Shown: positions 46,389-64,000 of the stretch, one piece after another
Layout of the letters: every line of letters begins with the position of its first letter
How positions within the stretch are numbered: the stretch's first letter is position 1
NCBI GenBank assembly: GCA_037927135.1
Contig: JAXSPP010000001.1
Coordinates: 96,001-160,000, forward strand
DNA from: Candidatus Pampinifervens sinense
GTDB lineage: Bacteria; Aquificota; Aquificia; Aquificales; Aquificaceae
Reading direction: 5' to 3'
Length of the DNA stretch: 64,000 bases
Notes under the pieces: generated by a model
Told to the model about the DNA's origin: nothing
Database searches by the model: none
The model's input: the letters and a program-made list of their open reading frames with translations, nothing else
Position numbers and translations under genes: made by a program

Positions 46389-46406
46389 GGAAGTATATTA
46401 TAGTCT

Positions 46407-47612
46407 ATGGTCAGAGAAGCACTAAAACTGCTCTTTCTTATAACAGCCTATAACTTCATATTGCATTACCTATCAGACTTTTTGCCCTTTGACCTGTTTC
46501 CCAAAAATTTGGAAGACATATTAATAGTCCTATCCATTGTGTCCGCCTTATACCTCGCTTGGCTTTTTGGATATAGGGAAAAGACAGTCATATGGCTGGC
46601 CTATGTGTCCTTTTTTCAAGTATTAGGCCTTTCTTTAGTAAGACAGGATTATACGGTTATAACCCAGTTTGTTCCTTCACTGCTTATAACACTTTTGCTC
46701 CTTTGGCTTTTTGAATCACCAGTAGAAAAAAGAACTAAAGAGCTTGAAGAAAGTAGGAAAAAACTTGAGGATGAACTGTTAAAGAATGAGGAAGAATTGA
46801 GGAAGCTTACAGAGCAAATAAACCTTTTAAAAGAGCTTACAAAAAGGCTTTATAGAGAAAAAAGATTTATAGAAGAACAGCTAGAAAGGTTAAAAGAAGA
46901 GGAAAGTGCAGAAAGAAAAGCCTTAGAGAGGGAAAGGGAAGAGCTTAGTGAAAAGCTTACTTATACTCAAAAAAAGCTTCAAGATTACATGGAGAGGCTT
47001 GAGAGGTTGACCAAAGTTAACAGAGAACTCTTTGAAATGCTTGAAGCTATACAAGATACAAGACACAATGATGGAAAGGAAGAGCTTTCAAGATTGAGAC
47101 AGGAGAGAAAGAGGTTGTCAAAGGAGCTTATACAACTCCAAGAACTTCTTGAAACTTTGTCTAAAGAAAACATGGAGCTAAGTAAAAAATATGATGAGCT
47201 AAAACAGGCTTTTGAAAAAGAGAGGAAAGAAAAAGAGCTTTTGAAATTAGAGATTGAGGATCTGAAAAGCACGCAAAAGAAAACTAAAGAAGTCTATGAA
47301 GATATACTTGAAATAATCTTTGATAATTTAGAGTTTGAGGAAAGGGCTATTAAGGAGTTTACAGAGCTAAGCTATGAAGCAAAGAAGGAGTTTATAAAAG
47401 AGCTCCTTCTTTTAGATATGAAGAGCTATGAGGAAAGATTTGAAAGCGTGAGGGGCTATAAGAATGTTTTTAAATTGAAGCCAGCGGGTGGAAGGATATA
47501 CTTCACCTTTGGAGAAAGAAAAAGGTGGAAGATTTTAGGTATGCTGTGGGGTGAAGATACAAAGACAAAGAATAGATATATTAGGGATCTTTTGGTAAAA
47601 TATAAAGACTAA
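46407..47612 (+). CDS. Membrane-anchored coiled-coil protein with a C-terminal RelE/ParE-like domain
   Basis: About four N-terminal TM helices, ~190 aa E/K/L heptad coiled coil, then LEFEERAIKEFTEL...RGYKNVFKLKPAGGRIYF...KILGM. Confidence 0.6.
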   Translation: MVREALKLLFLITAYNFILHYLSDFLPFDLFPKNLEDILIVLSIVSALYLAWLFGYREKTVIWLAYVSFFQVLGLSLVRQDYTVITQFVPSLLITLLLLWLFESPVEKRTKELEESRKKLEDELLKNEEELRKLTEQINLLKELTKRLYREKRFIEEQLERLKEEESAERKALEREREELSEKLTYTQKKLQDYMERLERLTKVNRELFEMLEAIQDTRHNDGKEELSRLRQERKRLSKELIQLQELLETLSKENMELSKKYDELKQAFEKERKEKELLKLEIEDLKSTQKKTKEVYEDILEIIFDNLEFEERAIKEFTELSYEAKKEFIKELLLLDMKSYEERFESVRGYKNVFKLKPAGGRIYFTFGERKRWKILGMLWGEDTKTKNRYIRDLLVKYKD

Positions 47613-47635
47613 AGGCTGTAAGAGGAGGAAAGGAG

Positions 47636-48853
47636 ATGAGAAGTCTGAAAGAGGCCATTGAGACCCTTCTGTCTTTCAAGCCAAACGATTATATGATCAC
47701 AAATCTTTACCTTAGGCTTGATGTAGAAGACAGAGAAAATAGAAAGTATCTTAAGAACTTTAAGGATCTTGTAAAGGTTCATAAAGAATACTTGGAAAGG
47801 CGAAACTTAAGGAAGGAAGTTCTAGAGTCAATAGAGGAGGATTTTAAAAAGATGGAAGAGTTCTTATCGGAACCTGATAATCTAAAGGGTTGTAGAGGTA
47901 TAGCTATATTTTCATCTTCCGCAAGGGGTATATTTGAGGTGATAAAACTACCTTATGTATACAGAAACAGGTTAATGCTTTCTCACGATCCACTTTTGAG
48001 AGAAATAGCTTCTATAGATGAGGAGTTGGGAAGAGTAGGTATACTTCTGGTGGATAGAAAACATGTTAGGTTCTTCCTTATGGATCTTGAGGGTTTGGTG
48101 GAGGTAGTTGATTTTGTTGAGCCTATAGCCACAAGAGCTCATAAGTTTCACTCTGGTGGTGGCCTTTTGAAAGGAGCGGAAGGTATGATGAGGTTCTCTA
48201 TGCCTCAGAGGATAGGTGGTCCAAATATGGTACAGCATTCCTTTGGTGAGTATAGGTTTCATATGAGGATAAGAGAGGAAAAGCATAGGCTTTTTAAAAT
48301 AGCATGCGATGCTCTCATGGAAGCGTGGAAAGAAAGCAAATTTGACAAATTGGTAATAGGTTCAGACAGGGAGGATATAGAGGAGATAGAAAACCATCTT
48401 CACACATACCTAAAGGAAAGGCTTATTGGCTACATAAGGGTCAATCCATCTTATGTAGAGGAAAATGATTTGAGAGAGAAGGTCTTTGACCTTCTTATTC
48501 AAAAAAGCAGGGAGGAAGAAAGGGAGTTGATAAAGGAGCTTGAAGAGCTTCAGGGAAAAGGTTTAGCAGTCAATGGAACTTCAAAGGTAGTAGAACAGCT
48601 ATATATGGGCAATGTTAGGGTATTACTTGTACCAGAAGATTTTCATAAACCTGGTTATGTATGTGAAAATTCTCATCTACCACTCCTTACTTCAAACTGT
48701 CCTACCGATGAAAAGGTTTATGAGGTACCGGATGTGGTAGAAGAGATTATTGAGATGGCTCTAGAAGAGAGGGCAAGGGTAAAGGTGCTCTTTTTAGAGG
48801 AAACTAAGAGGAAGATAGATGGACTTGCTTGTCTCATGCGGTTCGCTCTATGA
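47636..48853 (+). CDS. Bacterial aRF1/eRF1-like (baeRF) protein
   Basis: ITNLYL, GIAIFSS, RNaseH-like GILLVDR, L7Ae-like C domain GLAVNG..V...L..G.V, terminal GLACLMRF. Confidence 0.75.
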   Translation: MRSLKEAIETLLSFKPNDYMITNLYLRLDVEDRENRKYLKNFKDLVKVHKEYLERRNLRKEVLESIEEDFKKMEEFLSEPDNLKGCRGIAIFSSSARGIFEVIKLPYVYRNRLMLSHDPLLREIASIDEELGRVGILLVDRKHVRFFLMDLEGLVEVVDFVEPIATRAHKFHSGGGLLKGAEGMMRFSMPQRIGGPNMVQHSFGEYRFHMRIREEKHRLFKIACDALMEAWKESKFDKLVIGSDREDIEEIENHLHTYLKERLIGYIRVNPSYVEENDLREKVFDLLIQKSREEERELIKELEELQGKGLAVNGTSKVVEQLYMGNVRVLLVPEDFHKPGYVCENSHLPLLTSNCPTDEKVYEVPDVVEEIIEMALEERARVKVLFLEETKRKIDGLACLMRFAL

Positions 48854-49446
48854 GCTATGAGAGGGTAGTGATTTTTATTGATGGGTCTAACCTTTTTCAT
48901 GCTATAAGGTATTTGAATGTAAGGATAGATTATCAAAAGCTTATTGCCTTTTTGGCAGAGGACAGAAAGCTCATAAGGGCTTACTTTTATGGAGCTGTTC
49001 CACAGGAAAAGGATCTGAAGAAGAACTCTCCTGAATGGGAAAGTTATCTAAGGCAGAGAAGGTTCCTTGAAGAACTTTCGCTCCAGGGTATAAAGGTAAA
49101 GTTGGCAAAATTGAGGAGGCTTCCTTCTGGTGAGTATGTAGAAAAGGAAGTGGATATCATGCTTGCCACAGATATGTTAAGCATGGCCTATATGAATGTT
49201 TTTGATACGGCTGTGCTTGTGAGCGGAGATAGCGACTTTTCTTACACTGTGGAGGAGGTGCAGAGGATAGGTAAAAGGGTTGAGAATGCTTCTTTTAAAA
49301 GGACAAGTTCTTACCATCTTAGGAAGGTGTGCGATAGGTTTGTGCTTTTGGATGATTATTTGGATAGGTTTGTGATAGAAGAGAGGCTGGAAATTACACA
49401 GGAGGTTAGCTTTTGGGAAAAGATAAAAAGGCTATGGAAAAGGTAA
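48850..49446 (+). CDS. NYN-domain (LabA/DUF88, PIN-like) ribonuclease
   Basis: IFIDGSNL, EKEVD..LA.D, LVSGDSDF; ATGA overlap with the baeRF stop. Confidence 0.88.
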   Translation: MSYERVVIFIDGSNLFHAIRYLNVRIDYQKLIAFLAEDRKLIRAYFYGAVPQEKDLKKNSPEWESYLRQRRFLEELSLQGIKVKLAKLRRLPSGEYVEKEVDIMLATDMLSMAYMNVFDTAVLVSGDSDFSYTVEEVQRIGKRVENASFKRTSSYHLRKVCDRFVLLDDYLDRFVIEERLEITQEVSFWEKIKRLWKR

Positions 49447-50378
49447 AATCCTTAAGGACAAGCAGGAGTGGATGTATAAAGGGTTTAGTTTGTATAGAAG
49501 GTGAGGAGAGCGATACGGTTATCACCGTAGGCAACTTTGATGGGGTTCATCTTGGACATAGATCCCTATTAAATAGGGTTAAAAAGATAGCTGAAGAGAA
49601 GGGTCTAAAAAGTGTAGTTCTTTCCTTTTATCCACATCCCATTAAGGTACTTAGTCCTTCTCAAGCTCCCTGCGAGCTTACAAACCTTTATGAGAAGGCA
49701 GAGCTTATACTTCAAGAGGGTATTGAAAGCGTAGTCTTTATAAAGTTTGACAAAAGCTTTGCTACTCTTAGTGCAGAGGATTTTATAAGGGAGGTTATAG
49801 TTCAAAGGCTAAAATGTAAACACCTTGTAGTAGGATACGATTGGAGGTTTGGCTACAGACGTGAGGGGGAAATAGAGCTGGCAAGGGAGATGGGAAGGGA
49901 GCTAGGCTTTGAGGTGGAGGAGGTACAGCCTTTTAGAATCAACGGCCATATAGTGAGTAGCACATTGATAAGAAGGCTTTTACATATGGGTAGGCTTGAA
50001 GAGGCCTCTTTGTATCTTGGGAGAAATTACTCAATAAGGAGGCGTGTGGTAAAAGGAGATGGGAGAGGTTCTTCTCTTGGCTTTCCCACAGCAAACCTTG
50101 AAAACACGGAAGATCTTTGCCTAAAGGAAGGTGTTTATGTGGTAAAAGTGGAGGGGAATCTGTTAGGCGTGGCAAATTACGGTAGAAGGCCTACTTTTGA
50201 TGGCCACAGAAAGGTGCTTGAAGTGCATATACTTGATTTTGATGGAGACCTAAGAGGGAAGCATATAAAGGTGGAGTTTTTAAAGTTCTTAAGGGAGGAG
50301 AAGAAGTTTAGCTCGGTGGAAGAACTTGTAAAACAGATACAGGAAGATATATCAAGAGCTAGATTGTTCTTCCGTTAA
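49434..50378 (+). CDS. ribF: Riboflavin kinase/FAD synthetase
   Basis: GNFDGVHLGH, VSST.IR, GFPTAN, RPTF, LEVH, LREEKKF; start uncertain. Confidence 0.93.
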   Translation: MEKVKSLRTSRSGCIKGLVCIEGEESDTVITVGNFDGVHLGHRSLLNRVKKIAEEKGLKSVVLSFYPHPIKVLSPSQAPCELTNLYEKAELILQEGIESVVFIKFDKSFATLSAEDFIREVIVQRLKCKHLVVGYDWRFGYRREGEIELAREMGRELGFEVEEVQPFRINGHIVSSTLIRRLLHMGRLEEASLYLGRNYSIRRRVVKGDGRGSSLGFPTANLENTEDLCLKEGVYVVKVEGNLLGVANYGRRPTFDGHRKVLEVHILDFDGDLRGKHIKVEFLKFLREEKKFSSVEELVKQIQEDISRARLFFR

Positions 50379-50636
50379 GTATCCTATGTAAAGAACTTTT
50401 CCGTCTTCCGAAAGTCCAAAGGCCTTTTCCATCTTGTCCTTCAAACCCTTCTTATTCTCCAGAAAATCCTTCAAGGTTTTTGGTTCTCCATGGGCTCTTA
50501 GCATATACTCCCTTACCTCTCCATTGTCAAAGTAGATTTTTACAGGGAGGCAATAAAACTTGGCATTTTCTCCATCATGGCACCTATTTATCTCTCCGAT
50601 CACCTCAATACTCACACTCCTTGCTACAATTCTCAT
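50352..50636 (-). CDS. Hypothetical protein
   Basis: 94-aa ORF with TAAAAT 7 nt before the ATG. Confidence 0.6.
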   Translation of the reverse strand: MRIVARSVSIEVIGEINRCHDGENAKFYCLPVKIYFDNGEVREYMLRAHGEPKTLKDFLENKKGLKDKMEKAFGLSEDGKVLYIGYLTEEQSSS

Positions 50637-50646
50637 AGCTTATATT

Positions 50647-52215
50647 TTAACTCATCCCTAGCTCTTTAAGTTTCCTCCACAATGTGGTCCTATGGATGCC
50701 TAACATTCTAGCCGCTAAGCTTTTGTTTCCACCGGCCTCTTCAAGGGCCTTTTTAATCTTCTCCCTTTCATCTACCACGTTCACAGAAAGGCTTTCCACC
50801 TCAATCTGAAGGTCTTCGGGTTTTATAAGGGCACCTCTACAGGTTATGACCGCATGTTCTATAATGTTTTCAAGCTCCCTTACATTTCCAGGGAAGCTAT
50901 GGGAGAGGAGGATCTTCATAGCTTCTGAGGTAATACCCCTTATTCCTCTTGAGTATTTCCTTGAGTATTTTTCTATAAAATGGCTTACAAGGGGAGGAAT
51001 GTCTTCTTTTCTTTCTCTTAATGGTGGGATATGGAGCTTTACAACGCTAAGTCTATAGTATAGGTCCTCCCTGAACAAACCTTGTTTTATAAGGTCTTTT
51101 AAATTTTTGTTTGTGGAGGCTATGATACGAACGTTAGCCCTTCTAGTCCTTGTATCTCCAAGCCTTTCAAACTCCTTTTCCTGAACCAAATGTAGTATTT
51201 TTGCCTGCAGGTGCAAAGGCATATCCCCTATCTCGTCCAGAAATAGCGTTCCTCCTTCCGCCAGCTCCACCTTTCCCGGTTTATCCCTCATGGCACCGGT
51301 GAAGGCACCTTTGACATAACCAAAAAGCTCTGCCTCCAATAGGCTCTCAGGTATGGCTGCACAGTTCACCTTTACAAAGGGACCATCCCTCCTCGGAGAA
51401 AGGTAATGTATATACTTGGCAAGGAGGCTTTTCCCTGTGCCAGTCTCACCCTCTATAAGCACGTTAACATCGTACTCGGCAACCACCTTTGCCGTATCTA
51501 AAACCTTTTGGAAATTGGGGTTTCTAGTTATTATCTTTTCTTCGCTTTCAAACTCGCATATATCTATATCTTTTACAACGTAAAGAGAAACTACATAGCC
51601 AAATCCAGAGGTCATAGGAGAGACAAGGAGGGAAGCCTTTTGTCTTCCACAAGGAGTTTCCACAAAAATGTCTGCCCTTTCCCCTTCTGGAGGAAGATCC
51701 TCCAAGGAAAGGTTTATAAGGTCCTGTATATGCCTACCCACCAAGACCTCATCCTCCTCTCTGCATAGCATCCTACTTGCCACTTTGTTATGCTCCACCA
51801 CCTTCCCTTCTGGGTCAAGCACAAGTATGGCTTCCACTATGGAGTTTAGTATGGTCTCCTTGTAGGTCCTTTGGCGCTCCGCTTCCACTATACAATGAAC
51901 CACATTGCTAACATCCTTAAAAACCTCTATTACACCCACAAACTCACCCTCTTCATAGAGGGGAGACATACTCCAACATACATGCTTAGAGTTCCTTAGA
52001 GTGGTGTCATAGACCTGGACTCCTTCCCTTTCCTCTTTCACATACTCAAAGGGACAATGTTCACATATAGAGAATAGCCCTCTACAGCTTTTCCCTTCTA
52101 AAGCTTCTCCCAGAAGCTCCTTCGCAGATCTATTAGCATAAACAACTTTAAAATCTTTGTCTATGATCAAGACACCATCAAAGAGACTTTCAAAAGGGAG
52201 GAAGTTTAACTTCAC
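50647..52215 (-). CDS. PAS-domain sigma54-dependent activator
   Basis: Two PAS-like domains (Cys-rich), [21 protein letters not shown], Fis HTH. Confidence 0.9.
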
Positions 52216-52463
52216 TCCTTTTTACCGTAGTGCTTATAGAGATACTCCACAATGGGTCCTATATCCTCCTGTTTTATAGGGGCTCCAAAGACCTTTATCA
52301 TCTTATTTACGCTCGCTTCCCACCCCTTTTTATCAAGGAAAGGTGAGTTCATCTGGATGTAGTCAAGACTGTGGCAGACTGAGCAGTTGGCTTCAACCAG
52401 CTCTTTACCTACAGCTACAAACCCCCCTAAACCACTTTTAATAAGATCCCTTCTACTTAGCAT
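52212..52463 (-). pseudogene. Chimeric ORF: Tat signal fragment fused to a SorB-like cytochrome c
   Basis: MLSRRDLIK twin-arginine motif with a truncated h-region joined directly to GKELVEANCSVCHSLDYIQMN..W...V.KM...GAP. Confidence 0.55.
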
Positions 52464-52564
52464 TTCTTAACCTCCCTCTAAATATACACAGGTTTAATCA
52501 TAGATTCAGGTTTTAGGCTTTTGCAATAAAAAAATATTATCTAATCCATAAGCCTACCTTATAA

Positions 52565-52951
52565 TCATACACTCCAATCCGTTGGCACTCTAGACATCAT
52601 ACGTAGGCTTTCTTCAAAGGCAGACATATACTTCATGGCTGTTATCATAGACCCCTTAAACTTTAACCTTTTGGTTAGCATGGCGGCGCGTGGCCCCATT
52701 TCTCCAGTGGCAAGCCTTTTCCAGTTTTCTAGGCTTGCCCAAAGTTCAAAGTCATATTTATGAGAGTTGGCCCTTCCTGCAGACTTGGCTATGCCTTTAT
52801 CCACGATTAGCTCCACCGCATCTTCTTCCCTTCCTTCCACATAGTACTTTATGCTGGCGGAAAAGTCTTTGAGCTCTGATTTCAATTTTTCGTTTTTGTT
52901 CCACTCTTCCGCATAGGCCTTTATCCATTCTTCAGAAAGGAATCTGTACAT
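52565..52951 (-). CDS. SCP2 sterol/lipid-binding domain protein
   Basis: FLSEEWI, W..L..G...P..A....LK.KG.M pattern. Confidence 0.75.
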   Translation of the reverse strand: MYRFLSEEWIKAYAEEWNKNEKLKSELKDFSASIKYYVEGREEDAVELIVDKGIAKSAGRANSHKYDFELWASLENWKRLATGEMGPRAAMLTKRLKFKGSMITAMKYMSAFEESLRMMSRVPTDWSV

Positions 52952-52976
52952 GATAAGCCTCCCTATAAAAAGTAAG

Positions 52977-52999
52977 AGGGGAGGCTCAGGACCTCCCCT
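52977..52999 (-). terminator. GC-rich hairpin, possible terminator or mRNA stabiliser
   Basis: AGGGGAGG/CCTCCCCT 8-bp stem with a 7-nt loop, followed on the minus strand by CTTACTTTTT. Confidence 0.5.
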
Positions 53000-53005
53000 T
53001 TGCCC

Positions 53006-53341
53006 TTACTTCCCAGCCTCCTCCCTCAAAGCCTTAAATATCTCGTTAAAAGACACCTCATCGTTGTTTACAAAAACACCCACATTGCCCACTACACATA
53101 CGGAGTATTTGGGACCAGTAACAGCCCATCCTATGAGGGGTGTCCACTCTTGACCAGAAAAGGCTGTATACCCATCGCATTCCATCCTTGCCATCATGTT
53201 GTTTGCTGCACACATCATGGCAGCCATGGCTGCATGCTCTTCAGAAAGCGGACCTTTGTAAGCTACAAGCTTTCCATCATCGGTAAATTCACCCGCAGCC
53301 CAAACGCCTTTAATTTGCATTAGCCTGTCAAGGTTTGCCAT
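53006..53341 (-). CDS. DUF2173 family protein (paralog 2)
   Basis: LM..KGV.AAGEF.DDGKL, A.MCAAN, GWAVTG..Y.VC..GN.GVFV; SD GGAGG. Confidence 0.7.
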   Translation of the reverse strand: MANLDRLMQIKGVWAAGEFTDDGKLVAYKGPLSEEHAAMAAMMCAANNMMARMECDGYTAFSGQEWTPLIGWAVTGPKYSVCVVGNVGVFVNNDEVSFNEIFKALREEAGK

Positions 53342-53356
53342 GGTTCTCACCTCCTT

Positions 53357-53698
53357 TTAGATGTATTTGGAAAGGATTTCAAAGGTTTTGTCAAAGTCTG
53401 CCTTATCAAGCTCTACAAAGACTCCTACATTGCCCATTATGCATGCAGCATACTTACCACCGGCTACAGCAAAGCCATACACGGGATAAAAGCCACCCTG
53501 CCCTGTGTAGGCACTCCAACCCTTTGCTTGCATGTTGGCCATAAGCTTATTAGCAGCACACATCAGGGCGGCTATCTCTGCCGCTTTTTCATCAATGTTG
53601 CCATAGTAAGCAAGGAGCCTCCCATCATCGGAAAACTCTCCCGCCGCAATAGCTCCCGGTATAGACATAAGCTCTTTTAGCTTGCTAAGTGTTGCCAT
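53357..53698 (-). CDS. DUF2173 family protein (paralog 1)
   Basis: Same motifs as the neighbouring paralog; SD GGAGG before ATG 53698. Confidence 0.7.
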   Translation of the reverse strand: MATLSKLKELMSIPGAIAAGEFSDDGRLLAYYGNIDEKAAEIAALMCAANKLMANMQAKGWSAYTGQGGFYPVYGFAVAGGKYAACIMGNVGVFVELDKADFDKTFEILSKYI

Positions 53699-53735
53699 GG
53701 TTGCACCTCCTTCAAAGGTTTTCACCCATTTATTT

Positions 53736-53751
53736 TGCAAAGAAGATGCCA
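53736..53751 (-). promoter_or_regulatory. Sigma54 (-24/-12) promoter
   Basis: Minus strand TGGCAT-CTTCT-TTGCA matches TGGCAC-N5-TTGC; 37 nt upstream of the DUF2173 ATG. Confidence 0.8.
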
Positions 53752-53812
53752 TTTTTACCTTTTTGAAAATGGCTTAAATCAAGGCTTTTAGTAGAGTAGA
53801 GGAAGATAAGAG

Positions 53813-53840
53813 TGTTTCATGTTGCAACAGTGTTGCAACG
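53813..53840. promoter_or_regulatory. Upstream activator sequence for a sigma54 activator
   Basis: TGTTTCA-TGT-TGCAACA overlapping tandem palindromes TGTTGCAACA and TGTTGCAACG, about 60-90 bp upstream of the -24 element. Confidence 0.65.
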
Positions 53841-53887
53841 CTTTAGGGTCTTGAAAGGCAAGGGAAAAGGAATAAACTTTTATCCTT

Positions 53888-54394
53888 ATGGTAAGGGAAA
53901 TAATAAAGTACCCACATCCCATACTTAAGGCGCCTACGCAAAAAGTGGATGTTATAGATAGGGAAGTAAGGGAGATAATAAGGGATATGTTTGAGACCAT
54001 GTATCATGCTGAAGGGGTGGGACTTGCCGCAAATCAGATAGGCATCAGCCTAAGGATCATGGTAATAGATACTTCCCCTAAGAAGGAAAGTCCACCTTTA
54101 AAGCTTGTCCTTATAAATCCAGAGGTTATAGAGAAGGAGGGAAGCATAAAGTATAAGGAAGGGTGTCTTTCTTTTCCAGGCCTTACGGTAGAGGTAGAAC
54201 GCTACAAAAGTGTAAAGGTTAAAGCTCTTAATGAACATGGGGAGGAGGTGTTTTACCATTTTGAAGGCTTTCCCGCCATAGTTTTCCAGCACGAGATGGA
54301 CCACCTTGAAGGGATCACCTTTATAGATAGGGTAAATGGGTTGAGAAGAAGGCTAGCCCTTGAAAAGTATGCTAAGCTTCAAAGGCAAAGGTGA
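53888..54394 (+). CDS. def: Peptide deformylase
   Basis: GVGLAANQIG, EGCLS, QHEMDHL. Confidence 0.96.
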   Translation: MVREIIKYPHPILKAPTQKVDVIDREVREIIRDMFETMYHAEGVGLAANQIGISLRIMVIDTSPKKESPPLKLVLINPEVIEKEGSIKYKEGCLSFPGLTVEVERYKSVKVKALNEHGEEVFYHFEGFPAIVFQHEMDHLEGITFIDRVNGLRRRLALEKYAKLQRQR

Positions 54395-54654
54395 AGGTAG
54401 AGCTGGTAAATTTTTACCCTTTTGAGTTCTCTACAAGAAGACCAAGGCTGCTGGCCTATGCGGATGTAAGGCTTGATGGCAAAATACTTATAAGGGGTAT
54501 AAGGCTATATGAAGCCAAAAACGGAGGGCTTTTTATAGTTATGCCTGAGTTTAGCCCAGAGAGTAGAAGGGCTATAGTGGAGATAGAGGATAGGGAGCTT
54601 TTGGAAAAGATAAGGAGGGTGGTGGTGGACCGTTATAAAGAGAGTCTTTCATGA
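54391..54654 (+). CDS. SpoVG-family nucleic-acid-binding protein
   Basis: LLAYADV.LD..I.IRGIRL.E.KNGGLFIVMP, I...V...Y. Confidence 0.7.
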   Translation: MKVELVNFYPFEFSTRRPRLLAYADVRLDGKILIRGIRLYEAKNGGLFIVMPEFSPESRRAIVEIEDRELLEKIRRVVVDRYKESLS

Positions 54655-54857
54655 CTAAGGAGGAAAAGCTTTCAAAAGCTAAAACTCTTCTATTAGAGCA
54701 TATGGATTACATAAAGAAAAACTTTAGTGTTTCAAACGTGGGAGTGGTCATTGTGGATGATGAAATAATCGTGGTAGTGGATGGGAAATTTGATCCTGAG
54801 GGTTTAAAAAGCTTAAAGGCTTATCTTGAAGAAGTTTTGAAGGAAGTAGAGGAATAA
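54651..54857 (+). CDS. Small hypothetical protein
   Basis: 68-aa ORF with ATGA overlap to the upstream gene. Confidence 0.55.
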   Translation: MTKEEKLSKAKTLLLEHMDYIKKNFSVSNVGVVIVDDEIIVVVDGKFDPEGLKSLKAYLEEVLKEVEE

Positions 54858-54914
54858 GAAATCAATCACTCTAACACAAGAGGCTCTAATATGCCCCCAT
54901 CTTTTTATCCATAA

Positions 54915-54942
54915 TGTTAATATAATTGCTATTATATTAACA
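54915..54942. other. dif-like tyrosine recombinase site (11-6-11)
   Basis: TGTTAATATAA-TTGCTA-TTATATTAACA; perfect inverted arms with the inner ATAA-N6-TTAT core. Confidence 0.7.
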
Positions 54943-54958
54943 CCTACTTCCCCTATCC

Positions 54959-55007
54959 TTTGACAGTCATTGACACTTAATAGTAGATGATATAAAATAC
55001 TGTCAAA
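54959..55007 (+). promoter_or_regulatory. Sigma70 promoter bracketed by an inverted operator
   Basis: TTGACA (54970-54975)-N17-TAAAAT (54993-54998), flanked by TTTGACAGT (54959-54967) and ACTGTCAAA (54999-55007). Confidence 0.65.
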
Positions 55008-55026
55008 AGCTTGAAAGGAGGCTATC

Positions 55027-55659
55027 ATGGAAAGTGGCAAAAATGTTGTCAAAGTGAAGGCATCCGAGTACGCTATGCTAACAGACCTATCTCTAAACAC
55101 GGTTAAGAACCGTATAAGGGCCGGTGTGCTAAAGGGTGGTAAGGAGGAAGACGGTATATGGTATGTTTATCTCACTCAGGAAGAATTGGACCACCTAAGA
55201 AATCTAAAGGAGGCTCAAGAGGAAAAGGATAAAAAGCTACAGTCAAACCTTGAGGGTCTCAAATCTACCTTGGAAGGAAGCCTTATCGCTACCTACATGT
55301 CTGCACTTATGCAAAAGGAACAACAAAAGGAACAGCTCCTGCATGAGCTTTCCAGTCTTTACACTCTGCTTGCTATAAGAGAAAAGGAGATGGAGTTCCT
55401 TGTAAAGGAGTTAGCAAACGTAAAGGAAAAGTGTTTAGAAAAAGAAAGAGAGTGCGAAAAATTAAAAGAAAGCCTTGGTGAAAAAGAAAAGAGGATAAGG
55501 GAGCTTGAAGAAGCCCTAAGGGAAAAGGACTATATACTTAACCAAAAAGAGCTTGAAATTCAAAGGGTTATACTGGATAAGGACAAGGAGCTTTTGAGTA
55601 AAGAGATGGAATTATCAGCTCTTAGGATGGAGTTAGAGAAAAGGAAGAAGAAGGAATAA
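55027..55659 (+). CDS. HTH (excisionase/MerR-like) plus long coiled-coil protein
   Basis: SEYA.L..LS..TV..RIR.G.L...K..GIWYV winged HTH, then ~150 aa coiled coil; SD AAGGAGG. Confidence 0.7.
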   Translation: MESGKNVVKVKASEYAMLTDLSLNTVKNRIRAGVLKGGKEEDGIWYVYLTQEELDHLRNLKEAQEEKDKKLQSNLEGLKSTLEGSLIATYMSALMQKEQQKEQLLHELSSLYTLLAIREKEMEFLVKELANVKEKCLEKERECEKLKESLGEKEKRIRELEEALREKDYILNQKELEIQRVILDKDKELLSKEMELSALRMELEKRKKKE

Positions 55660-55669
55660 AATTTTAAGT

Positions 55670-56533
55670 ATGGATAGGCTTTTGGACCTGTGGCTTAAAA
55701 GTCTAAGCAGGGCAAAAAGCCAGAGGACCATAATAACTTACAAAACGTGCCTTAGCACCTTTCAAAAGCATTTGGGAGAGGGTAAAAGCCTGCTTGAGGC
55801 GGAACAAGGAGATATATACTCTTACATAGACTCCACAAACCTTTCTGTGTCTTCCATACTTACACATCTATCTGCCATAAAGCACTTTTACAGGTTTGCC
55901 TTTAGAAGGGGTTGGCTTGATAAAGAACGCTATTCGGATATAGAGTCTGTAATAGAGGATATTAGGGATGAGTTTTCTACTTCAAGGCTCCAAAGGAGCC
56001 CAAGGGCGCTTACAAAGGAAGAACTCCAAAGAATATTTCAATCTGTAAAGAACACAAAATACGAACGGGTTTATACACTCTTCCTGTATAGTGGTATTAG
56101 GCTATCCGAGTATGCAAAGCTCAGTAGTGAGTTCTTCCGTAAAGATTCAGAAGGTATATACTGGTTGAGGCTTCCCGCGGAAATCACCAAAAGGAAGAAG
56201 GAAAGGATGGTACCTTTGATTGGCCCCACAAAGGAAGAAAGCTTAGAGATAAGCCAAAAGCTTGACCTTTGGCTTGAAGACTACGAAAAATACATAAAAG
56301 TAAACACAGGGTCCTTACAAGTTTTTACCAACAGGCTATCTCAAAGGCTTGGTATTCCTTTCTCAGTTCATAGCTTCCGGCATACCTACATAACAAACCT
56401 TGTTAATGCTGGCTTTCCTGCGGAGGTGGTAAAGGAGTTCGCCGGCCACTCTAACGTAAAGACCACCATAGACATATACTATAGGTTTAGCCAAGACAGG
56501 GCAAAAAACCTTGTAAAGAGCTTTCTTAGATGA
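55670..56533 (+). CDS. Tyrosine recombinase (Xer-like)
   Basis: SAM-like N domain; catalytic R (SGIRLSE), K (TKR), HSFRH, AGH and Y (TTIDIY) all present. Confidence 0.9.
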   Translation: MDRLLDLWLKSLSRAKSQRTIITYKTCLSTFQKHLGEGKSLLEAEQGDIYSYIDSTNLSVSSILTHLSAIKHFYRFAFRRGWLDKERYSDIESVIEDIRDEFSTSRLQRSPRALTKEELQRIFQSVKNTKYERVYTLFLYSGIRLSEYAKLSSEFFRKDSEGIYWLRLPAEITKRKKERMVPLIGPTKEESLEISQKLDLWLEDYEKYIKVNTGSLQVFTNRLSQRLGIPFSVHSFRHTYITNLVNAGFPAEVVKEFAGHSNVKTTIDIYYRFSQDRAKNLVKSFLR

Positions 56534-57306
56534 AGTTCTTTGTGCTTACCATTTTCCCTCAGGTGATAAATTGTTATGCAGAGTATGGTATAGTAAAGCA
56601 AGCCATAAAAAAAGGATCGCTTGAGCTTTATACCGTAGACATAAGAAGGTATGCCCATAAGGGACAAGTGGACGATACGGCCTACGGTGGTCATCCCGGT
56701 ATGGTCATAAAGCCCGAACCAGTCTTTTTTGCCTATGAGGAACTGGTAAAGCTGCATGGAAGACCACATACCATAATTCCACAGCCATGGGGCAAAAGGA
56801 TAGATCAGATGGATTTAGATAGACTTTCAAAGCTTGAAAGTATAGCCGTAATATGTGGAAGGTATGAAGGTTTGGACGAAAGGATAAGCACTCTTGCCGA
56901 TGAAGAGCTGTCTTTGGGAGACTTTGTTTTGGCAGGGGGAGAGCTTTTTGCCCTTGTACTTTTGGAAGGCATTGCAAGGCTTTTGCCAGGCGTTTTAAGT
57001 GAACCAGAAAGTATAAAAAGAGATTCCTTTAGAAGATGGCTTGGCTCTCCAGTTTATACAAGACCTGCGGACTTTAGAGGAATGAAGGTGCCGGATGTTC
57101 TTCTCTCTGGAAACCACCAGCTTATAAGGCTTTGGGAGCTTTGGCATTCTATAGAGAGGACATTAAGGCTAAGGCCGGACCTTGTGCCAAAAGATCTGAC
57201 AGAGTTAGAAAGCTCCATTCTTACAGCCATAAAGGAGGGCCTTACCTTTGAGGGCTGGCTTGAAAGGGTAGGCTATGAGAAGGCAATAAGGATGCTTAAA
57301 GATTAA
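56530..57306 (+). CDS. trmD: tRNA (guanine37-N1)-methyltransferase
   Basis: VDD..YGG.PGM, CGRYEG.DER, GDFVL.GGE, YTRP, VPDVLLSGNH. Confidence 0.95.
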   Translation: MKFFVLTIFPQVINCYAEYGIVKQAIKKGSLELYTVDIRRYAHKGQVDDTAYGGHPGMVIKPEPVFFAYEELVKLHGRPHTIIPQPWGKRIDQMDLDRLSKLESIAVICGRYEGLDERISTLADEELSLGDFVLAGGELFALVLLEGIARLLPGVLSEPESIKRDSFRRWLGSPVYTRPADFRGMKVPDVLLSGNHQLIRLWELWHSIERTLRLRPDLVPKDLTELESSILTAIKEGLTFEGWLERVGYEKAIRMLKD

Positions 57307-58378
57307 CATATTCTAAGGCCACATCTTCTTCAAACCTTTTTATTTCCCTGAGGCGTAGCCTTTTGGCCTCCTGCAAAGCTTCTACATTAAGCTCTCCTAT
57401 CCTTTTGCCTTCTCCTATCAAAAGGGGTGCCACAAAGACCCAAAGCCTGTCAAAAAGTCCCTCTCTTATAAAAGTGGTATGGGTAATAGAACCCCCTTCC
57501 ACCAAAAGGTGCATAACCTCCATAAAGTAAAGCTCCCTTAAAACTTCCTTCAAATCCAATCTCCCATCCTTTGAAGGTGCCAAAAGGACCCTTATACCCA
57601 TCTCTTCCAGCCTTTGTATTTTTTCCCTGTTTTCACTGGCCGTTATTATTATGGTAGGTGCCTTGCCATCCCTTATCAGTTTTAAGTCTTCCCTTATCCT
57701 GAGCTGTGGGTCAAGGACTATCCTTATAGGCTGTCTTTCCCAAGGGAAGGCCCTTATGGTTAGCTCAGGGTCATCTCTCAAAGCTGTGTTTATACCCACA
57801 AGCACGGCCGTTGCTTCCGCCCTTAGCCTGTGAGCAAAGACTCTTGACTCTTGAGAACTTATCCATTTGCTTTCCCCTGTCTTTGTAGCCATAGACCCAT
57901 CTATGCTCTGGGCCCACTTTAGGGTTATGTAAGGCCTCTTTTGCGTTATGTAGATAAAAAAGTCTTCGTTTAGCCTTTTTGCCTCTTCTTCCAACACACC
58001 CACAGACACCTCAATGCCAGCCCTTTTTAGCCTCTCTACACCTTTGCCAGAAACAAGGGGGTTTGGGTCCAATGTGGCAATAACTACCCTCTTTAGCCCA
58101 GCTTTTATTATGGCATCGGTGCAAGGAGGAGTCCTACCATAGTGGGTGCAAGGCTCAAGGGTTACATAAAGGGTAGCTCCTCTGGCCATCTCTCCAGCTT
58201 GCTGTAGGGCTACCACTTCTGCATGAGGCATACCAGCCCTTTCGTGATAGCCTTCACCCACCACCTTTCCATCCTTTACTATTACACAACCCACCGTTGG
58301 ATTTGGATGAGTAAGACCCTTGCGCTTTTGGGCAAGCTCAAGGGCTCTTTTCATAAACTCAAGATCTTTATCTTTCAT
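57296..58378 (-). CDS. ribD: Riboflavin biosynthesis deaminase/reductase
   Basis: PNPTVG, HAE, TLEPC.H.GRTPPC, LVEGG. Confidence 0.95.
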   Translation of the reverse strand: MKDKDLEFMKRALELAQKRKGLTHPNPTVGCVIVKDGKVVGEGYHERAGMPHAEVVALQQAGEMARGATLYVTLEPCTHYGRTPPCTDAIIKAGLKRVVIATLDPNPLVSGKGVERLKRAGIEVSVGVLEEEAKRLNEDFFIYITQKRPYITLKWAQSIDGSMATKTGESKWISSQESRVFAHRLRAEATAVLVGINTALRDDPELTIRAFPWERQPIRIVLDPQLRIREDLKLIRDGKAPTIIITASENREKIQRLEEMGIRVLLAPSKDGRLDLKEVLRELYFMEVMHLLVEGGSITHTTFIREGLFDRLWVFVAPLLIGEGKRIGELNVEALQEAKRLRLREIKRFEEDVALEYVNL

Positions 58379-58650
58379 CAGTCAAATATATCAAAAAGCT
58401 CATCAAAGATGGATTTTCTCTTCTTCTTGTATTTGTATTCCTCATACTTTCTGTAAACATCAGGGTAATCCTTAGTTATTAATCTTAGCTCTTCATCCAA
58501 GCTATTTTCTGCCCTGCGTATGGCCTCTATTATCTTTGACAGTTCTCCCTTATCAAGCCACATGCCACCGCAAGAGGGACAAACATCCACCAGCACACCA
58601 TACCTGTTTACTTCCAAAAGGTCTACATCCACGCATCTAGGACACTTCAT
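58378..58650 (-). CDS. zf-TFIIB zinc-ribbon protein
   Basis: CPRC...CPSCGGMWLDKGEL, KKRKS...LFD tail. Confidence 0.85.
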   Translation of the reverse strand: MKCPRCVDVDLLEVNRYGVLVDVCPSCGGMWLDKGELSKIIEAIRRAENSLDEELRLITKDYPDVYRKYEEYKYKKKRKSIFDELFDIFD

Positions 58651-58654
58651 ACTG

Positions 58655-59080
58655 CTACCTCCTTAAAAACTCCAGCATATCAACGTAGATTATTTTAAAA
58701 GCTTCATCCACAGCCTGCCTTCTGGGCAAATCTCCCAAGGCACCACTGGCTTGTGTGTATGGCACCACCACATGAAAGCTCCTACTTTTCTCATCAATAG
58801 ATAGGCTTACTTTAAGCTCTAAGTTGTAAGCACTTACTCTCTGTTGGGGTGTATAGGCAATAGGCATATCCTTTAAAGCTTCTACTCTTAACCTCACCTC
58901 CTTTGAACCATCATAGCAGCCTATCGTATATCCATCTTCCAAAAGAGCTCTTTCTACAACCTTTCTGAAGGCATAGCTAACGTAGGGCTCACCATACGGA
59001 TTTTGAACTTCTTTTATACAAATGGGTTGCGAGAAAGCAAAGGAAATAAAAGCACACATTGAAAGAAGAAGACCGCGCAT
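58655..59080 (-). CDS. Exported protein, possibly LptE-like
   Basis: Signal peptide; I.I..V.N, alpha/beta pattern, SAY.L.L.V. Confidence 0.4.
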   Translation of the reverse strand: MRGLLLSMCAFISFAFSQPICIKEVQNPYGEPYVSYAFRKVVERALLEDGYTIGCYDGSKEVRLRVEALKDMPIAYTPQQRVSAYNLELKVSLSIDEKSRSFHVVVPYTQASGALGDLPRRQAVDEAFKIIYVDMLEFLRR

Positions 59081-59100
59081 AATTTAAATATGTGGTATAA

Positions 59101-60664
<1,564 letters not shown>

Positions 60665-60679
60665 GTTATAATAGACACT

Positions 60680-61381
60680 ATGGGAAAAAAGATAGGTTTA
60701 GCGCTCTTGTTCGGATCTGTTTTCATCTTTTCCTGTGGTGGTATAACAAAGGAAGAGTTTGATAAAAGAATGCAAGGCGTGGAGGGAAGACTTGCACAGA
60801 TTGAAGAAAGGCAGAGACTACTTGAAGAAAGGAGTCTAAAGACGGAAAGTAGAATAGATACACTATCGGAAAGCATAGCAAGTATAAGGTTAGAGATTGA
60901 AAGGTTAAAGGTAAACAGGGTGCAAGCTCCTACAAAACTTCCCGAACCAAAAAGGGAAGAAGCAAAGCTTCCTCAAGAAAATAAGCCTGCCGTGCAAGAG
61001 GACTATCAGAAGGAGTACGATGAGGCTTACAGGCTTTACAACCTAAGACAGCTCAACCAGGCCAGGGATAAGTTTATAGAGTTTATAAAGAAATATCCCA
61101 AAACGCCTCTGACAGACAATGCCTATCTGTGGCTTGGTGTAATATACAGGGACCTAGGAGAGTTAAACAAGGCTGAAGCCGTGTGGCTTACCCTTGTGGA
61201 AAGATGTCAAAGAAGGGAGATGGTAGACTGCAATAAGGCACCTTCCGCTTTGCTACAATTGGCAAGGCTTTATGAACAAAGGGGAGATGAGAAAAAGGCA
61301 AAGGAGTTTTATGAAGCTATATTAAAGGATTATCCTCTTTCTGAAGAGGCAAGCATAGCAAAGACAAAGCTTGGAAGGTAA
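60680..61381 (+). CDS. YbgF/CpoB-like TPR lipoprotein
   Basis: Lipobox FSC, coiled coil, TPRs (FIKKYP...DNA.LWLG). Confidence 0.8.
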   Translation: MGKKIGLALLFGSVFIFSCGGITKEEFDKRMQGVEGRLAQIEERQRLLEERSLKTESRIDTLSESIASIRLEIERLKVNRVQAPTKLPEPKREEAKLPQENKPAVQEDYQKEYDEAYRLYNLRQLNQARDKFIEFIKKYPKTPLTDNAYLWLGVIYRDLGELNKAEAVWLTLVERCQRREMVDCNKAPSALLQLARLYEQRGDEKKAKEFYEAILKDYPLSEEASIAKTKLGR

Positions 61382-61382
61382 T

Positions 61383-62063
61383 ATGAAAATACCAAGGCAT
61401 TTGGCCGTTATAATGGATGGAAATGGAAGATGGGCAAGGGAGAGAGGCTTGCCAAGGATAGCTGGACATTACCAAGGTGTAAAGAGGGCAGAGGAGCTGG
61501 TTGATGCCTGTTTAGAGTTAGGTATAAGGTGGCTCACCTTCTTTGCCTTTTCTACTGAAAACTGGAAAAGGCCTGAGGCTGAAGTTAGAGCCTTGATGAG
61601 GTTGTTGGAAGTCTATCTGCGGGAAAACTCTCACAAGCTTCTAGAAAAGGGTATAAAGCTTTCTTTCATAGGAAGGAGGGATAGGTTGCCAAAGAGTCTT
61701 GTGGAGGAAATGGAAAAGGCAGAAAGGCTTACTCCCAAACAGGAAAGATTACACGTCCTTCTTGCCGTTGATTATGGTGGAAGGGATGAGATAATAAGAA
61801 CGGCTAAAAAGTTGGTGGAGGCCGGAGTAGATATTAAAGAAGAAACCTTTAAAAACTTTTCAGACCTTGCCAACGTACCAGATCCAGACCTTCTTATAAG
61901 GACCGGTGGAGAAAAGAGAATATCCAACTTCCTTTTGTGGCATTTGGCTTACACTGAACTGTACTTTACCGATGTCTATTGGCCGGACTTTACAAAAGAA
62001 GAACTTCTTAAGGCTATAGAAGACTTTTCAAAGAGGGCAAGGAAGTTTGGTGCAGTTCTCTAA
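61383..62063 (+). CDS. uppS: Undecaprenyl diphosphate synthase
   Basis: HLAVIMDGNGRWA, FSTENWKRP, DLLIRTGGE.RISNFLLW. Confidence 0.96.
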   Translation: MKIPRHLAVIMDGNGRWARERGLPRIAGHYQGVKRAEELVDACLELGIRWLTFFAFSTENWKRPEAEVRALMRLLEVYLRENSHKLLEKGIKLSFIGRRDRLPKSLVEEMEKAERLTPKQERLHVLLAVDYGGRDEIIRTAKKLVEAGVDIKEETFKNFSDLANVPDPDLLIRTGGEKRISNFLLWHLAYTELYFTDVYWPDFTKEELLKAIEDFSKRARKFGAVL

Positions 62064-62763
62064 AGGTAGGGAAGGTATAGGCATACTTATAGGAGTGGTG
62101 ACTATTTTAATCAGTCTGTCTCCTTATGCTATATTTTACCTCGCCTTGCTACTCCTTTCCTCTCTTATAGGATACGAAATTTCAAAAGCTATAGGTTTAA
62201 GGCACTTTTATATAGCACCAACCATCTTTATAGTCTATTCCTTCTCCAAAGAGCTAGCAATATCATTTCTCTTACTTGTATCCCTCTACGTAGGTTGGAA
62301 GTCATGGGATTTTCAAAAGTTTTTAAAATCCATACTGGTAGCTGTGTATGCTGGCCTTCTTCCATCTATTCTGTTGGATATCAAGTCTGCAGAAGACTTT
62401 AACCTTGTAAAACTACTACTTTTTGTTTGGGCTGTGGATATCTTTTCATACTATACAGGCAAGAGGTATGGGAAAAGGCAACTTGCACCTAGGCTTTCTC
62501 CAAAGAAAACATGGGAAGGTTTGTTGGGTGGAGCCTTAGCTGGAAGCCTTATCCTTATGCTTTTTTATGGGCTTGATGGACTTCTCTGGTCTCCTCTAAT
62601 GGTAGCTTCCGCAGTAATGGGGGACCTTTTTAAAAGCTATATTAAAAGAAGCGTTGGTATAAAGGATTTTTCCCATATACTGGGAGAGCATGGTGGTTTT
62701 ACCGATAGGTTTGACTCCCTTATATTTACAGCACCCATCTACCTTTTTCTCTTAAAATTTTAG
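62047..62763 (+). CDS. cdsA: Phosphatidate cytidylyltransferase
   Basis: SPKKTWEG, GDL..S..KR...KD......HGG..DRFDS. Confidence 0.92.
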   Translation: MVQFSKGREGIGILIGVVTILISLSPYAIFYLALLLLSSLIGYEISKAIGLRHFYIAPTIFIVYSFSKELAISFLLLVSLYVGWKSWDFQKFLKSILVAVYAGLLPSILLDIKSAEDFNLVKLLLFVWAVDIFSYYTGKRYGKRQLAPRLSPKKTWEGLLGGALAGSLILMLFYGLDGLLWSPLMVASAVMGDLFKSYIKRSVGIKDFSHILGEHGGFTDRFDSLIFTAPIYLFLLKF

Positions 62764-62765
62764 AC

Positions 62766-64000
62766 ATGGACATTAAGGCGTGGGTTGAGGAAGGGTTAAA
62801 AGGCGGTTATGAATACGAGGTGTATTTGGAGAGAAAGAAGAAGACCGTTATAGAAAGTTCGGAAGAAAAACTTGAAAACCTTATAAGATCTCAGGAGGTA
62901 GGCATAGGTATAAGAGTTTTCAAGGAAAATAAGATGGGCTTTGCCTATACTACAGACCTCAGAAGGGAATCGGTAATAGAGTGTGTTAGAATAGCCATGG
63001 ATATCTGTAATATAACACCTAAGGATGAAGGCTTTGCCCTTGGGGCATGTCAGGCTCTTGGTAAGCTGGAAAGTTATTATGATAAGGAAGGACTTGATAT
63101 TCCCCTTGAAGAGAAGATAGAAACAGTTATCGGTCTAGAAAGGAGAGCAAAGAGTATAGACAAAAGAATAAAGGGTGTGAGAAAAGTTAGCCTGAAGGAA
63201 GTGGAGCTTGAAGTGTCCTGCTTTAACTCCTGCGGGCTCTTCTACGACTATAGGGGGACATGGTATAGCTCTATGATAGCCGTTCTTGCGGAAGAGGATG
63301 GAGATCAGTCCATCTCCTATCACTTTGTAGGTGCCAGAAGTCTTTCTGACCTTCCCATAGAAGACATGGTAGAAGAGGCGGTTTTTAAAGCCACTTCAAC
63401 CCTTAAACCTTCACCCTTTGAAACAAAAAGGATGCCTGTAGTTCTCTATAGGGATGCTTCCGCTATGATATTGGAGGCTTTTAGCCCAATCTTTCTCGGT
63501 GATTCTTTGGTGAAGGATAGGACATTTCTAAAGGGAATGGAAGGAGAGAGGGTTTTCTCTGAAAAGCTCAGCATAGTTGATGATGGTACATTAAAAGGAG
63601 GTTTTATGAGCCTTCCGGTGGATGCGGAAGGGTACCTGACCCAGAAGAAGTTTGTAGTAGAAAAGGGAGTATTTAAAGAGTTTTTACACAGTACCTATAC
63701 TGCCCTTAAGGCAAAAAAAGCCCCAACGGGTAACTCGGTGAGGGAAAGTTTTAAAAACTTACCAACTTCTGGCATAACAAACCTTTACATCCAACCGGGA
63801 GATACAAGCCTTGAGGATATGCTTCAGGAAGAGGTCTTTTTAATAACGGACCTTATGGGCTTGCATACAGTAGATCCCGTTTCAGGTGATTTTTCTCTAG
63901 GAGCTTCTGGTATAATATACAAGGGAGGAAAGAAGAAGCAGAGTGTGAGGGGTGTAGTGATAGGGGGGAATATTAAGGAACTCTGGAATCAGATAAAAGC
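62766..64000 (+). CDS. TldD/PmbA family protein (PmbA-like; 3' end outside the window, missing from the ORF track)
   Basis: Own translation from ATG 62766: MDIKAWVEE..GIGIRV...MGFAYT..., later GLHTVDPVSGDFSLGASG. Confidence 0.85.
   Translation, partial: MDIKAWVEEGLKGGYEYEVYLERKKKTVIESSEEKLENLIRSQEVGIGIRVFKENKMGFAYTTDLRRESVIECVRIAMDICNITPKDEGFALGACQALGKLESYYDKEGLDIPLEEKIETVIGLERRAKSIDKRIKGVRKVSLKEVELEVSCFNSCGLFYDYRGTWYSSMIAVLAEEDGDQSISYHFVGARSLSDLPIEDMVEEAVFKATSTLKPSPFETKRMPVVLYRDASAMILEAFSPIFLGDSLVKDRTFLKGMEGERVFSEKLSIVDDGTLKGGFMSLPVDAEGYLTQKKFVVEKGVFKEFLHSTYTALKAKKAPTGNSVRESFKNLPTSGITNLYIQPGDTSLEDMLQEEVFLITDLMGLHTVDPVSGDFSLGASGIIYKGGKKKQSVRGVVIGGNIKELWNQIK

Follow-up and report, generated by a model that had tools for sequence, protein, structure and literature searches.

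The archaeal XerA/dif system, described for Pyrococcus abyssi, Thermococcales and Sulfolobus, consists of one recombinase that works without FtsK and a 28-bp site of 11-6-11 form with near-perfect arms (PMC2958812; PMC5357621). In these accounts, the gene is located beside its site in some species and far from it in others, and the site lies away from the position at 180° from the origin, in rearranged genomes that offer no usable skew. XerS/difSL of streptococci and lactococci also employs one recombinase; it is described as an FtsK/Xer system (PMC2965235), and difSL is 31 bp long with unequal arms and an 11-bp centre (PMC5357621). The single recombinase XerL of Legionellales is described as having diverged past Xer homology searches, and its dif combines long uninterrupted inverted arms with clade-wide conservation and varying flanks; GC skew put this dif at the terminus, and an FtsK homologue is present in Legionella (PMC9765430). 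At the plasmid sites cer and psi, XerCD acts independently of FtsK on a core flanked by protein-occupied accessory sequences, the proteins being ArgR and PepA (PMC5357621). In this study, a 28-bp dif-like site and the nearby gene of a 287-amino-acid Xer-like tyrosine recombinase were analyzed in a stretch of 64,000 nucleotides from Candidatus Pampinifervens sinense (Aquificaceae), hereafter the window, which had been the subject of an earlier note. The best explanation, to which a probability of about 0.65 is assigned, is that the site and the recombinase form a single-recombinase, FtsK-independent dif/Xer dimer-resolution system of Aquificaceae that works like archaeal XerA/dif. This is the reading that the earlier note had proposed; it is supported by inference, and none of the in silico results that the note had named as refuting it was obtained. 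The coordinates of all features are collected in Table 1.

The site reads TGTTAATATAA-TTGCTA-TTATATTAACA, with perfect pairing between its 11-bp arms and an asymmetric 6-bp spacer, exactly as had been claimed; read strictly, the palindrome is 12-4-12. The site has the anatomy usual for Xer/dif, in which two inverted arms of 11 bp enclose a centre of 6-8 bp (6 bp here) to give a total of about 28 bp; its sequence is AT-rich, and its position is intergenic (in the gap 54858-55026). The stated distance of 727 bp between the end of the 28-mer and the start of the recombinase gene is accurate; however, this interval is not empty, as it contains an open reading frame (ORF) of 210 amino acids that had been missed, here termed HTHcc. 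At a threshold of three mismatches, the 28-mer had no match in the window other than itself on both strands and none in 100 shuffles of the window. A chance inverted repeat devoid of function might be suspected in an AT-rich region, since short palindromes are common in intergenic DNA; however, the chance expectation is none and the site is real, and the conservation described below, with no matches in the control, refutes this possibility, which we regard as negligible.

In sequence, each of the two arms is similar to the XerD arm of classical dif and to archaeal dif. A common variant of the arm, TTATGTTAACA, equals the XerD arm of Sulfurimonas at 10 of 11 bases, taking the latter as printed in PMC2731167, and the P. 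abyssi dif oligonucleotide given in PMC2958812 has the core ATATAA-N6-TTATAT and 15 of 22 arm positions in common with the site. The closest solved structure to the recombinase by sequence is also that of P. abyssi XerA (4a8e), and the label 'archaeal-like' therefore holds.

The recombinase exceeds the cut-offs of both PF02899 (45.6 bits) and PF00589 (65.2 bits). The residues R144, K174, H234, R237, H260 and Y270 are invariant across 17 orthologues and align with the motifs of P. abyssi XerA, so that the core-binding and catalytic domains and the R-K-H-R-H/W-Y residues of an Xer recombinase in the general sense are all in place; the description of an intact recombinase overlapping trmD was thus borne out. 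Against the NCBIfam models, the protein scored 88.8 bits for XerD (TIGR02225, cut-off 330), 88.4 bits for XerA (NF040815, cut-off 220), 84.3 bits for XerC (TIGR02224, cut-off 335) and 40.6 bits for XerS (NF003462, cut-off 267). Because these scores are far under the cut-offs, the recombinase is classified from its sequence as Xer-like and outside the XerD, XerA and XerC equivalogs. XerS is a protein of 356 amino acids, and neither its equivalog nor the length and centre of difSL is matched here; what is common to the two systems is the use of one recombinase and, in this genome, the arrangement of gene and site as one module, whereas the site here has 28 bp and a 6-bp centre. The genome (12 contigs, 99.96% complete) contains two PF00589 genes. 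Apart from the recombinase, there is a gene of 366 amino acids with about 100 extra N-terminal residues, which adjoins rtcB near a contig end and is read as a phage-type integrase, leaving one Xer-like gene and no separate canonical xerC/xerD pair in the genome.

Conservation was assessed in a sample of Aquificaceae that included Hydrogenobacter, Thermocrinis, Aquifex, Hydrogenobaculum and Candidatus Pampinifervens, with the reversed pattern as the control for site searches. One full-length orthologue of the recombinase was present in 56 of 57 family genomes, with identities graded from 78% down to 45%, as for a chromosomal, vertically inherited core gene, whereas the best matches in other families of Aquificota were 22-32% identical; no full-length orthologue was present in another family of the phylum. 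The remaining genome, G017, was considered as a case in which site and recombinase had been lost together, and this was rejected: trmD is absent there too, and the missing recombinase is attributed to an assembly gap because the trmD region is also unassembled. The site was found in 20 of 24 same-genus genomes, in exactly one copy in each of the 20, and at three mismatches or fewer in 50 of 58 family genomes from 11 genera, usually once, with no match in the reversed control. A tighter core pattern, allowing one mismatch, matched 42 of 57 Aquificaceae genomes but none of 25 across three other families; in a fourth family it matched 8 of 35, where the reversed control fires as well. Since both site and recombinase are family-wide in Aquificaceae and not found in the three other families, they are matched in their range within the phylum. 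Between species, 16 distinct spacers occur among 24 distinct 28-mers, the conservation of the arms in this set being partly circular, as the sites were picked by their arms. Such variation of the spacer fits a region of strand exchange, and the pattern of one site per chromosome with conserved arms and a variable centre holds, an exception being an extra, truncated copy in this genome, which is described below.

The order site, HTHcc, recombinase, trmD was found in all 13 same-genus loci inspected; outside the genus, recombinase and trmD are still paired in 13 of 18 loci. Across the family, 57 loci had 850 bp or more of DNA upstream of the recombinase, and in 20 of these the site precedes it by 721-769 bp. 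Of the conservation beside orthologous recombinases that the earlier note had proposed to check, conservation of the site was confirmed, whereas adjacency is not a family rule. The two are separated by 178-674 kb in six complete genomes (G064, 178 kb; G062, 185 kb; G045, 269 kb; G041, 484 kb; G075, 613 kb; G072, 674 kb), and for this reason the site would work in trans, in the manner of dif. Persistence of one conserved site without linkage to the gene of its enzyme is expected of dif and not of an att site.

No FtsK translocase with a gamma domain was found when ftsK was checked for, as the earlier note had asked. In this genome, PF01580 gave only a partial match of 29.5 bits, located in a protein of 615 amino acids in which a PLD-type nuclease is fused to a HerA-type ATPase, and the best match to the gamma domain PF09397 had an E value of 0.36. 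Across 118 genomes of the phylum, no PF01580 match extended beyond 119 of the 221 model positions, and neither a second Xer nor FtsK was found. ORFs of similar length (about 615-680 amino acids) give the same partial PF01580 match across the phylum.

If the site and the recombinase act as a dif/Xer system, the 28-mer would be the core recombination site of the 287-amino-acid enzyme, and a single protein would bind both identical arms, forming a homotetramer on two synapsed sites. Strand exchange would take place across the 6-bp spacer and convert a chromosome dimer into monomers, and this resolution would proceed without FtsK, as with archaeal XerA. The product of the neighbouring gene would be a dimer-type DNA-binding coiled-coil protein, which probably binds its own repeats in the approximately 100 bp beside the core and which would either govern the timing and manner of recombination at the core or serve as a tether for the site. 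The differences from archaeal XerA/dif are that the host is bacterial, that the recombinase is not an equivalog of XerA (88 bits compared with 220), that no polar words point at the site and that a dedicated gene for a DNA-binding coiled-coil protein is tied to it. The likeness to XerL, which is one of description only, extends to a single diverged recombinase and to long uninterrupted inverted arms that are conserved across a clade with varying flanks.

Table 1. Features of the locus and of related regions in the genome. Positions refer to the window unless C1 is given.
Feature	Position	Strand	Remarks
28-bp dif-like core site	54915-54942	.	11-bp perfect inverted arms and asymmetric spacer TTGCTA
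Promoter-like TTGACA-17-TAAAAT (54970-54998) with flanking inverted repeats	54959-55007	+	Candidate binding region of the neighbouring protein (accessory sequence or operator)
HTHcc, winged-helix and long coiled-coil protein, 210 amino acids	55027-55659	+	Site-linked in every genome where found
Xer-like tyrosine recombinase, 287 amino acids	55670-56533	+	SAM-like core-binding domain and catalytic domain, without arm-binding domain
trmD	56530-57306	+	4-bp overlap with recombinase ORF; context
orf68, ORF of 68 amino acids	54651-54857	+	In the variable stretch from spoVG to the site; among inspected loci only here and in G015
Inverted duplication, copy A, 2.37 kb	52581-54937	.	SCP2, two DUF2173 genes, def, spoVG, orf68; ends within the right arm of the site
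Inverted duplication, copy B	C1:82341-79977, outside the window	.	71 kb from copy A
PLD-type nuclease/HerA-type ATPase fusion, 615 amino acids	24711-26558	-	Only FtsK-superfamily match in the genome

Several observations weigh against dimer resolution at this site. The recombinase scores 84-89 bits where the XerD, XerA and XerC models have cut-offs of 220-335, 8 of 58 family genomes have no site at three mismatches or fewer, and this genome carries a second, truncated copy. Furthermore, the genome gives no replication signal in GC skew, in GC skew at third codon positions (GC3) by gene strand or in gene-strand bias, and no polar words of 4-7 nucleotides converge on the site: the highest |z|, about 3.7 among approximately 1400 words, was the same as at the control point C1:115000, and stronger signals elsewhere in the genome track gene orientation. 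In 11 complete genomes, the distance from dnaA to the site was 0.4-45% of the chromosome (median 17%) and not near 50%; dnaA may be a doubtful marker of the origin in Aquificaceae, and archaeal dif is likewise described as lying elsewhere than at 180° from the origin (PMC5357621). Finally, the site precedes the start codon of HTHcc by 84-104 bp in all 12 HTHcc-type genomes measured, which would suit a regulatory site too.

The last point leads to the neighbouring gene, which is the more unusual part of the locus and whose tie to the site is the new point. HTHcc follows the site and not the recombinase: in G062, G064, G072, G074 and G075, its start lies about 90-110 bp from the site with the recombinase elsewhere. 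No family in Pfam, NCBIfam or PHROGs corresponds to the protein, sequence and profile searches of these collections and of PDB returned only coiled-coil noise, and none of its 67 detectable relatives has a functional name; where taxa are given, these are of Aquificaceae type, save for one bin labelled Acidobacteria. In the AlphaFold model (mean pLDDT 89), residues 7-50 are predicted to form a winged helix of beta-alpha-alpha-beta-beta order, after which comes a helix of about 160 amino acids. Foldseek gave no match to the protein at E <= 0.001; weak matches of the N-terminal domain were to BldC (probability 0.98), a RacA-DNA complex (0.87) and MerR-type regulators, together with one weak profile match to HTH_17, of excisionase type (E 0.023). 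In six genomes of two other genera (G045, G050, G052, G054, G079 and G080), the place of HTHcc is taken by an unrelated gene that encodes a ribbon-helix-helix (RHH) domain and a coiled coil, with PF01402 scores of 32-37 bits in the four proteins scanned.

These arrangements raise the alternative that the palindrome is the binding site of the neighbouring coiled-coil protein and has nothing to do with the recombinase, being either an operator or activator site or an organizing or fork-arrest site in the manner of matS/MatP, ram/RacA or Ter/RTP. A palindrome fits a dimeric binder, the spacing to HTHcc is fixed, the RHH coiled-coil gene of the two other genera stands at the same distance, the site stays by HTHcc far from the recombinase in five of the eight genomes with an HTHcc match, and the weak structural matches include RacA bound to DNA and BldC. 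However, the same 28-mer accompanies two unrelated DNA-binding folds, the winged helix and RHH, and it is kept in G041, G055 and G057 with neither gene adjacent. The 11-6-11 form and the XerD-like arms are features of dif, and the range of the site in the phylum equals that of the recombinase. Moreover, the 28-mer stops some 28 bp short of the -35 hexamer and does not lie over the promoter-like sequence, which is itself bracketed by a perfect 9-nt inverted repeat, TTTGACAGT / ACTGTCAAA.

The repeats beside the core provide a further argument. In the 1111 bp compared from the 12 genomes of HTHcc type, TGACA/TGTCA occurs 27 times (shuffle mean 2.3, maximum 8) and GTAATAC/GTATTAC not at all, whereas in the 558 bp from the six genomes of RHH coiled-coil type, the former is absent and the latter occurs ten times (shuffle mean 0.13, maximum 2); both motifs were chosen after inspection, and the genomes are related. 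Because each type has its own repeats beside the core, without cross-occurrence, neither HTHcc nor the RHH protein is likely to have the 28-mer as its operator, and on balance we consider a binding site of the neighbour an improbable account of the palindrome. HTHcc and the RHH protein are instead predicted each to bind, probably, their own repeats beside a shared core. Such binding may serve autoregulation or may have a role in recombination, and HTHcc may be an accessory factor of the site.

With regard to the latter, type-specific repeats in the approximately 100 bp beside the core parallel the accessory sequences of cer and psi. The accessory factors of these plasmid sites make the reaction selective for resolution. 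The site here differs from them in being chromosomal and in having a single enzyme, and the putative accessory proteins are unrelated to ArgR and PepA. RacA of Bacillus subtilis is a winged helix followed by a long coiled coil, an architecture that HTHcc shares in its predicted winged helix and long helix, with the weak match of its N-terminal domain to the RacA-DNA complex, and the form with RHH and a coiled coil recalls the architecture of Escherichia coli MatP. Searches of Pfam, NCBIfam and PDB found no sequence homology of HTHcc to RacA or MatP, and the arrangement is one gene beside one site in place of many sites over a macrodomain. It is tentatively proposed, as a possibility well short of an even chance, that chromosome unlinking at a palindromic dif in an FtsK-less phylum is governed by a coiled-coil protein encoded about 100 bp away, with the winged-helix form swapped for an RHH form in some genera, and that this protein, bound to repeats beside the core, either is a topological filter like the accessory proteins of cer and psi or tethers the site to the division machinery in the manner of MatP and RacA. 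If this were true, it would represent a new way for Xer recombination to gain direction and timing.

The earlier note had proposed to check that the 28-mer is unique in the genome, and strictly it is not. An inverted second copy is located at C1:79972-79999, outside the window and 71 kb away, with its left arm and spacer intact and six bases of the right arm. The two copies terminate an inverted duplication (Table 1), the halves of which are 85% identical overall and identical at 223 of the final 224 bases, and their homology stops where an element resembling an insertion sequence (IS) begins. Rfam and tRNA scans of the DNA beside the second copy found nothing, and this DNA proved to be the IS. 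The copy of the IS at the second site is considered to be rearranged because it lacks the target duplication of about 20 bp that other copies have. Copy B and uvrC share 96% identity with G015; in comparisons of this genome with G015, the HTHcc and recombinase proteins are 99.5-100% identical, trmD and ribD about 96% and other DNA 81-85%. This mosaic suggests that a recent exchange between species took place around the site and that a 71-kb inversion subsequently divided the exchanged region; the mosaic duplication may also be an assembly chimera. Since G015 and the other matching relatives hold one copy at the stringency of the site search, the second copy is regarded as accidental to this genome and is not counted in the system.

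The duplication also bears on the possibility that the site, the HTH protein and the recombinase are a domesticated or relic attP-xis-int module, serving integration and excision or an inversion, such as flipping of the 71-kb segment, and not dimer resolution. The gene order is alike, the winged helix with its weak HTH_17 match would suit an excisionase, PHROG integrase families match the recombinase, the orientation of the site relative to the genes varies between species, and two inverted copies 71 kb apart end a 2.37-kb inverted repeat whose homology stops inside the site. However, the second copy is specific to this genome, and the IS at its end alone explains where the homology stops. The module stands beside trmD throughout the genus, the recombinase has no arm-binding domain, and it diverges about as trmD does (66-78% compared with 75-81% identity in 12 loci, G015 being left aside). 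As had been claimed, there is no sign of a tRNA att site or of cargo: no tRNA gene was found at 45000-64000 of the window, no cargo genes were seen, and 20 relatives showed no second site. On the far side of the site, 8 of 13 same-genus loci have def-spoVG and the other 5 have unrelated DNA, with spoVG-to-site distances of 54-1038 bp; no half-sites, the signature of integrative mobile elements exploiting Xer (IMEX), were found to bound this variable stretch. In place of direct repeats around cargo, insertion at a tRNA or gene end and a patchy distribution, the system is present family-wide, and an origin as an integration module is judged to be quite unlikely, somewhat more so than a binding site of the neighbouring protein.

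In the open papers searched, no Xer/dif system of Aquificae was found, in agreement with the earlier note, which knew of none characterized; the dif predictions supplementing PMC3025954, which were outside the search, might include Aquificae. If the dif/Xer reading is correct, Aquificaceae and their thermostable proteins would gain a defined dif/Xer system, and FtsK-independent dimer resolution on a symmetric site, which has until now been a trait of archaea that Legionellales parallel in part, would have a bacterial example. The site would also provide a fixed landmark in genomes without usable GC skew. How a single Xer with a symmetric site and no FtsK resolves dimers without making them would become a testable question, and the coiled-coil protein tied to the site, which comes in two unrelated versions, offers a concrete candidate for the control that is missing.

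The IS-like element at the second copy (C1:79451-79977 of G000; L003:9451-9977) belongs to a type that is about 990 bp in full, has the terminal inverted repeats ACGCCGGGTGAGAAATT and encodes an ORF of 282 amino acids without a Pfam match. Its target duplications of about 20 bp are unusually long and often end just before a start codon. About 25 copies are present in G015 (copies in L037-L048), and the element is found at nearly all contig ends of this assembly.

Among relatives, the orientation of the whole site with respect to the HTHcc and recombinase genes varies, and both directions are found. The spacer is TTGCNA in G000, G015, G006, G011 and G023 and the reverse complement of this in other relatives, and in G006 the commonest form is present in exact reverse complement. 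Such a pattern would not arise from an inversion between two sites. A degenerate site-like 28-mer with seven arm mismatches was observed about 915 bp upstream of the recombinase in L058 and L059 (G062 and G064), where the true site is 178-185 kb from the gene, and the best site-like match in L144-L147 (Hydrogenobaculum or Aquificaceae), with six or seven mismatches, stands at the same distance of about 915 bp. This 28-mer may be a relic of a formerly linked position.

In the window, two tandem DUF2173 genes and an SCP2-domain gene (53006-53752 and 52565-52951) are divergent from def-spoVG, and the block of SCP2, DUF2173 and def-spoVG adjoins the site in 8 of 13 same-genus loci. Secondary site-like matches in relatives were considered and set aside as uninformative: three are inside an ORF of 678 amino acids that we read as resembling flhA, one is on a 7-kb contig with an ORF that we read as methylase-like, and one, on a circular contig of 4.37 kb, overlaps TGTAATCA-like direct repeats that resemble plasmid iterons. 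The last contig, L161 (G043:C20, 4518 bp), has a terminal direct repeat of 151 bp, for which reason the element is probably circular and about 4.37 kb in size. It carries an ORF of 727 amino acids, an ORF with what we read as an RHH-like motif, and four of the iteron-like direct repeats.

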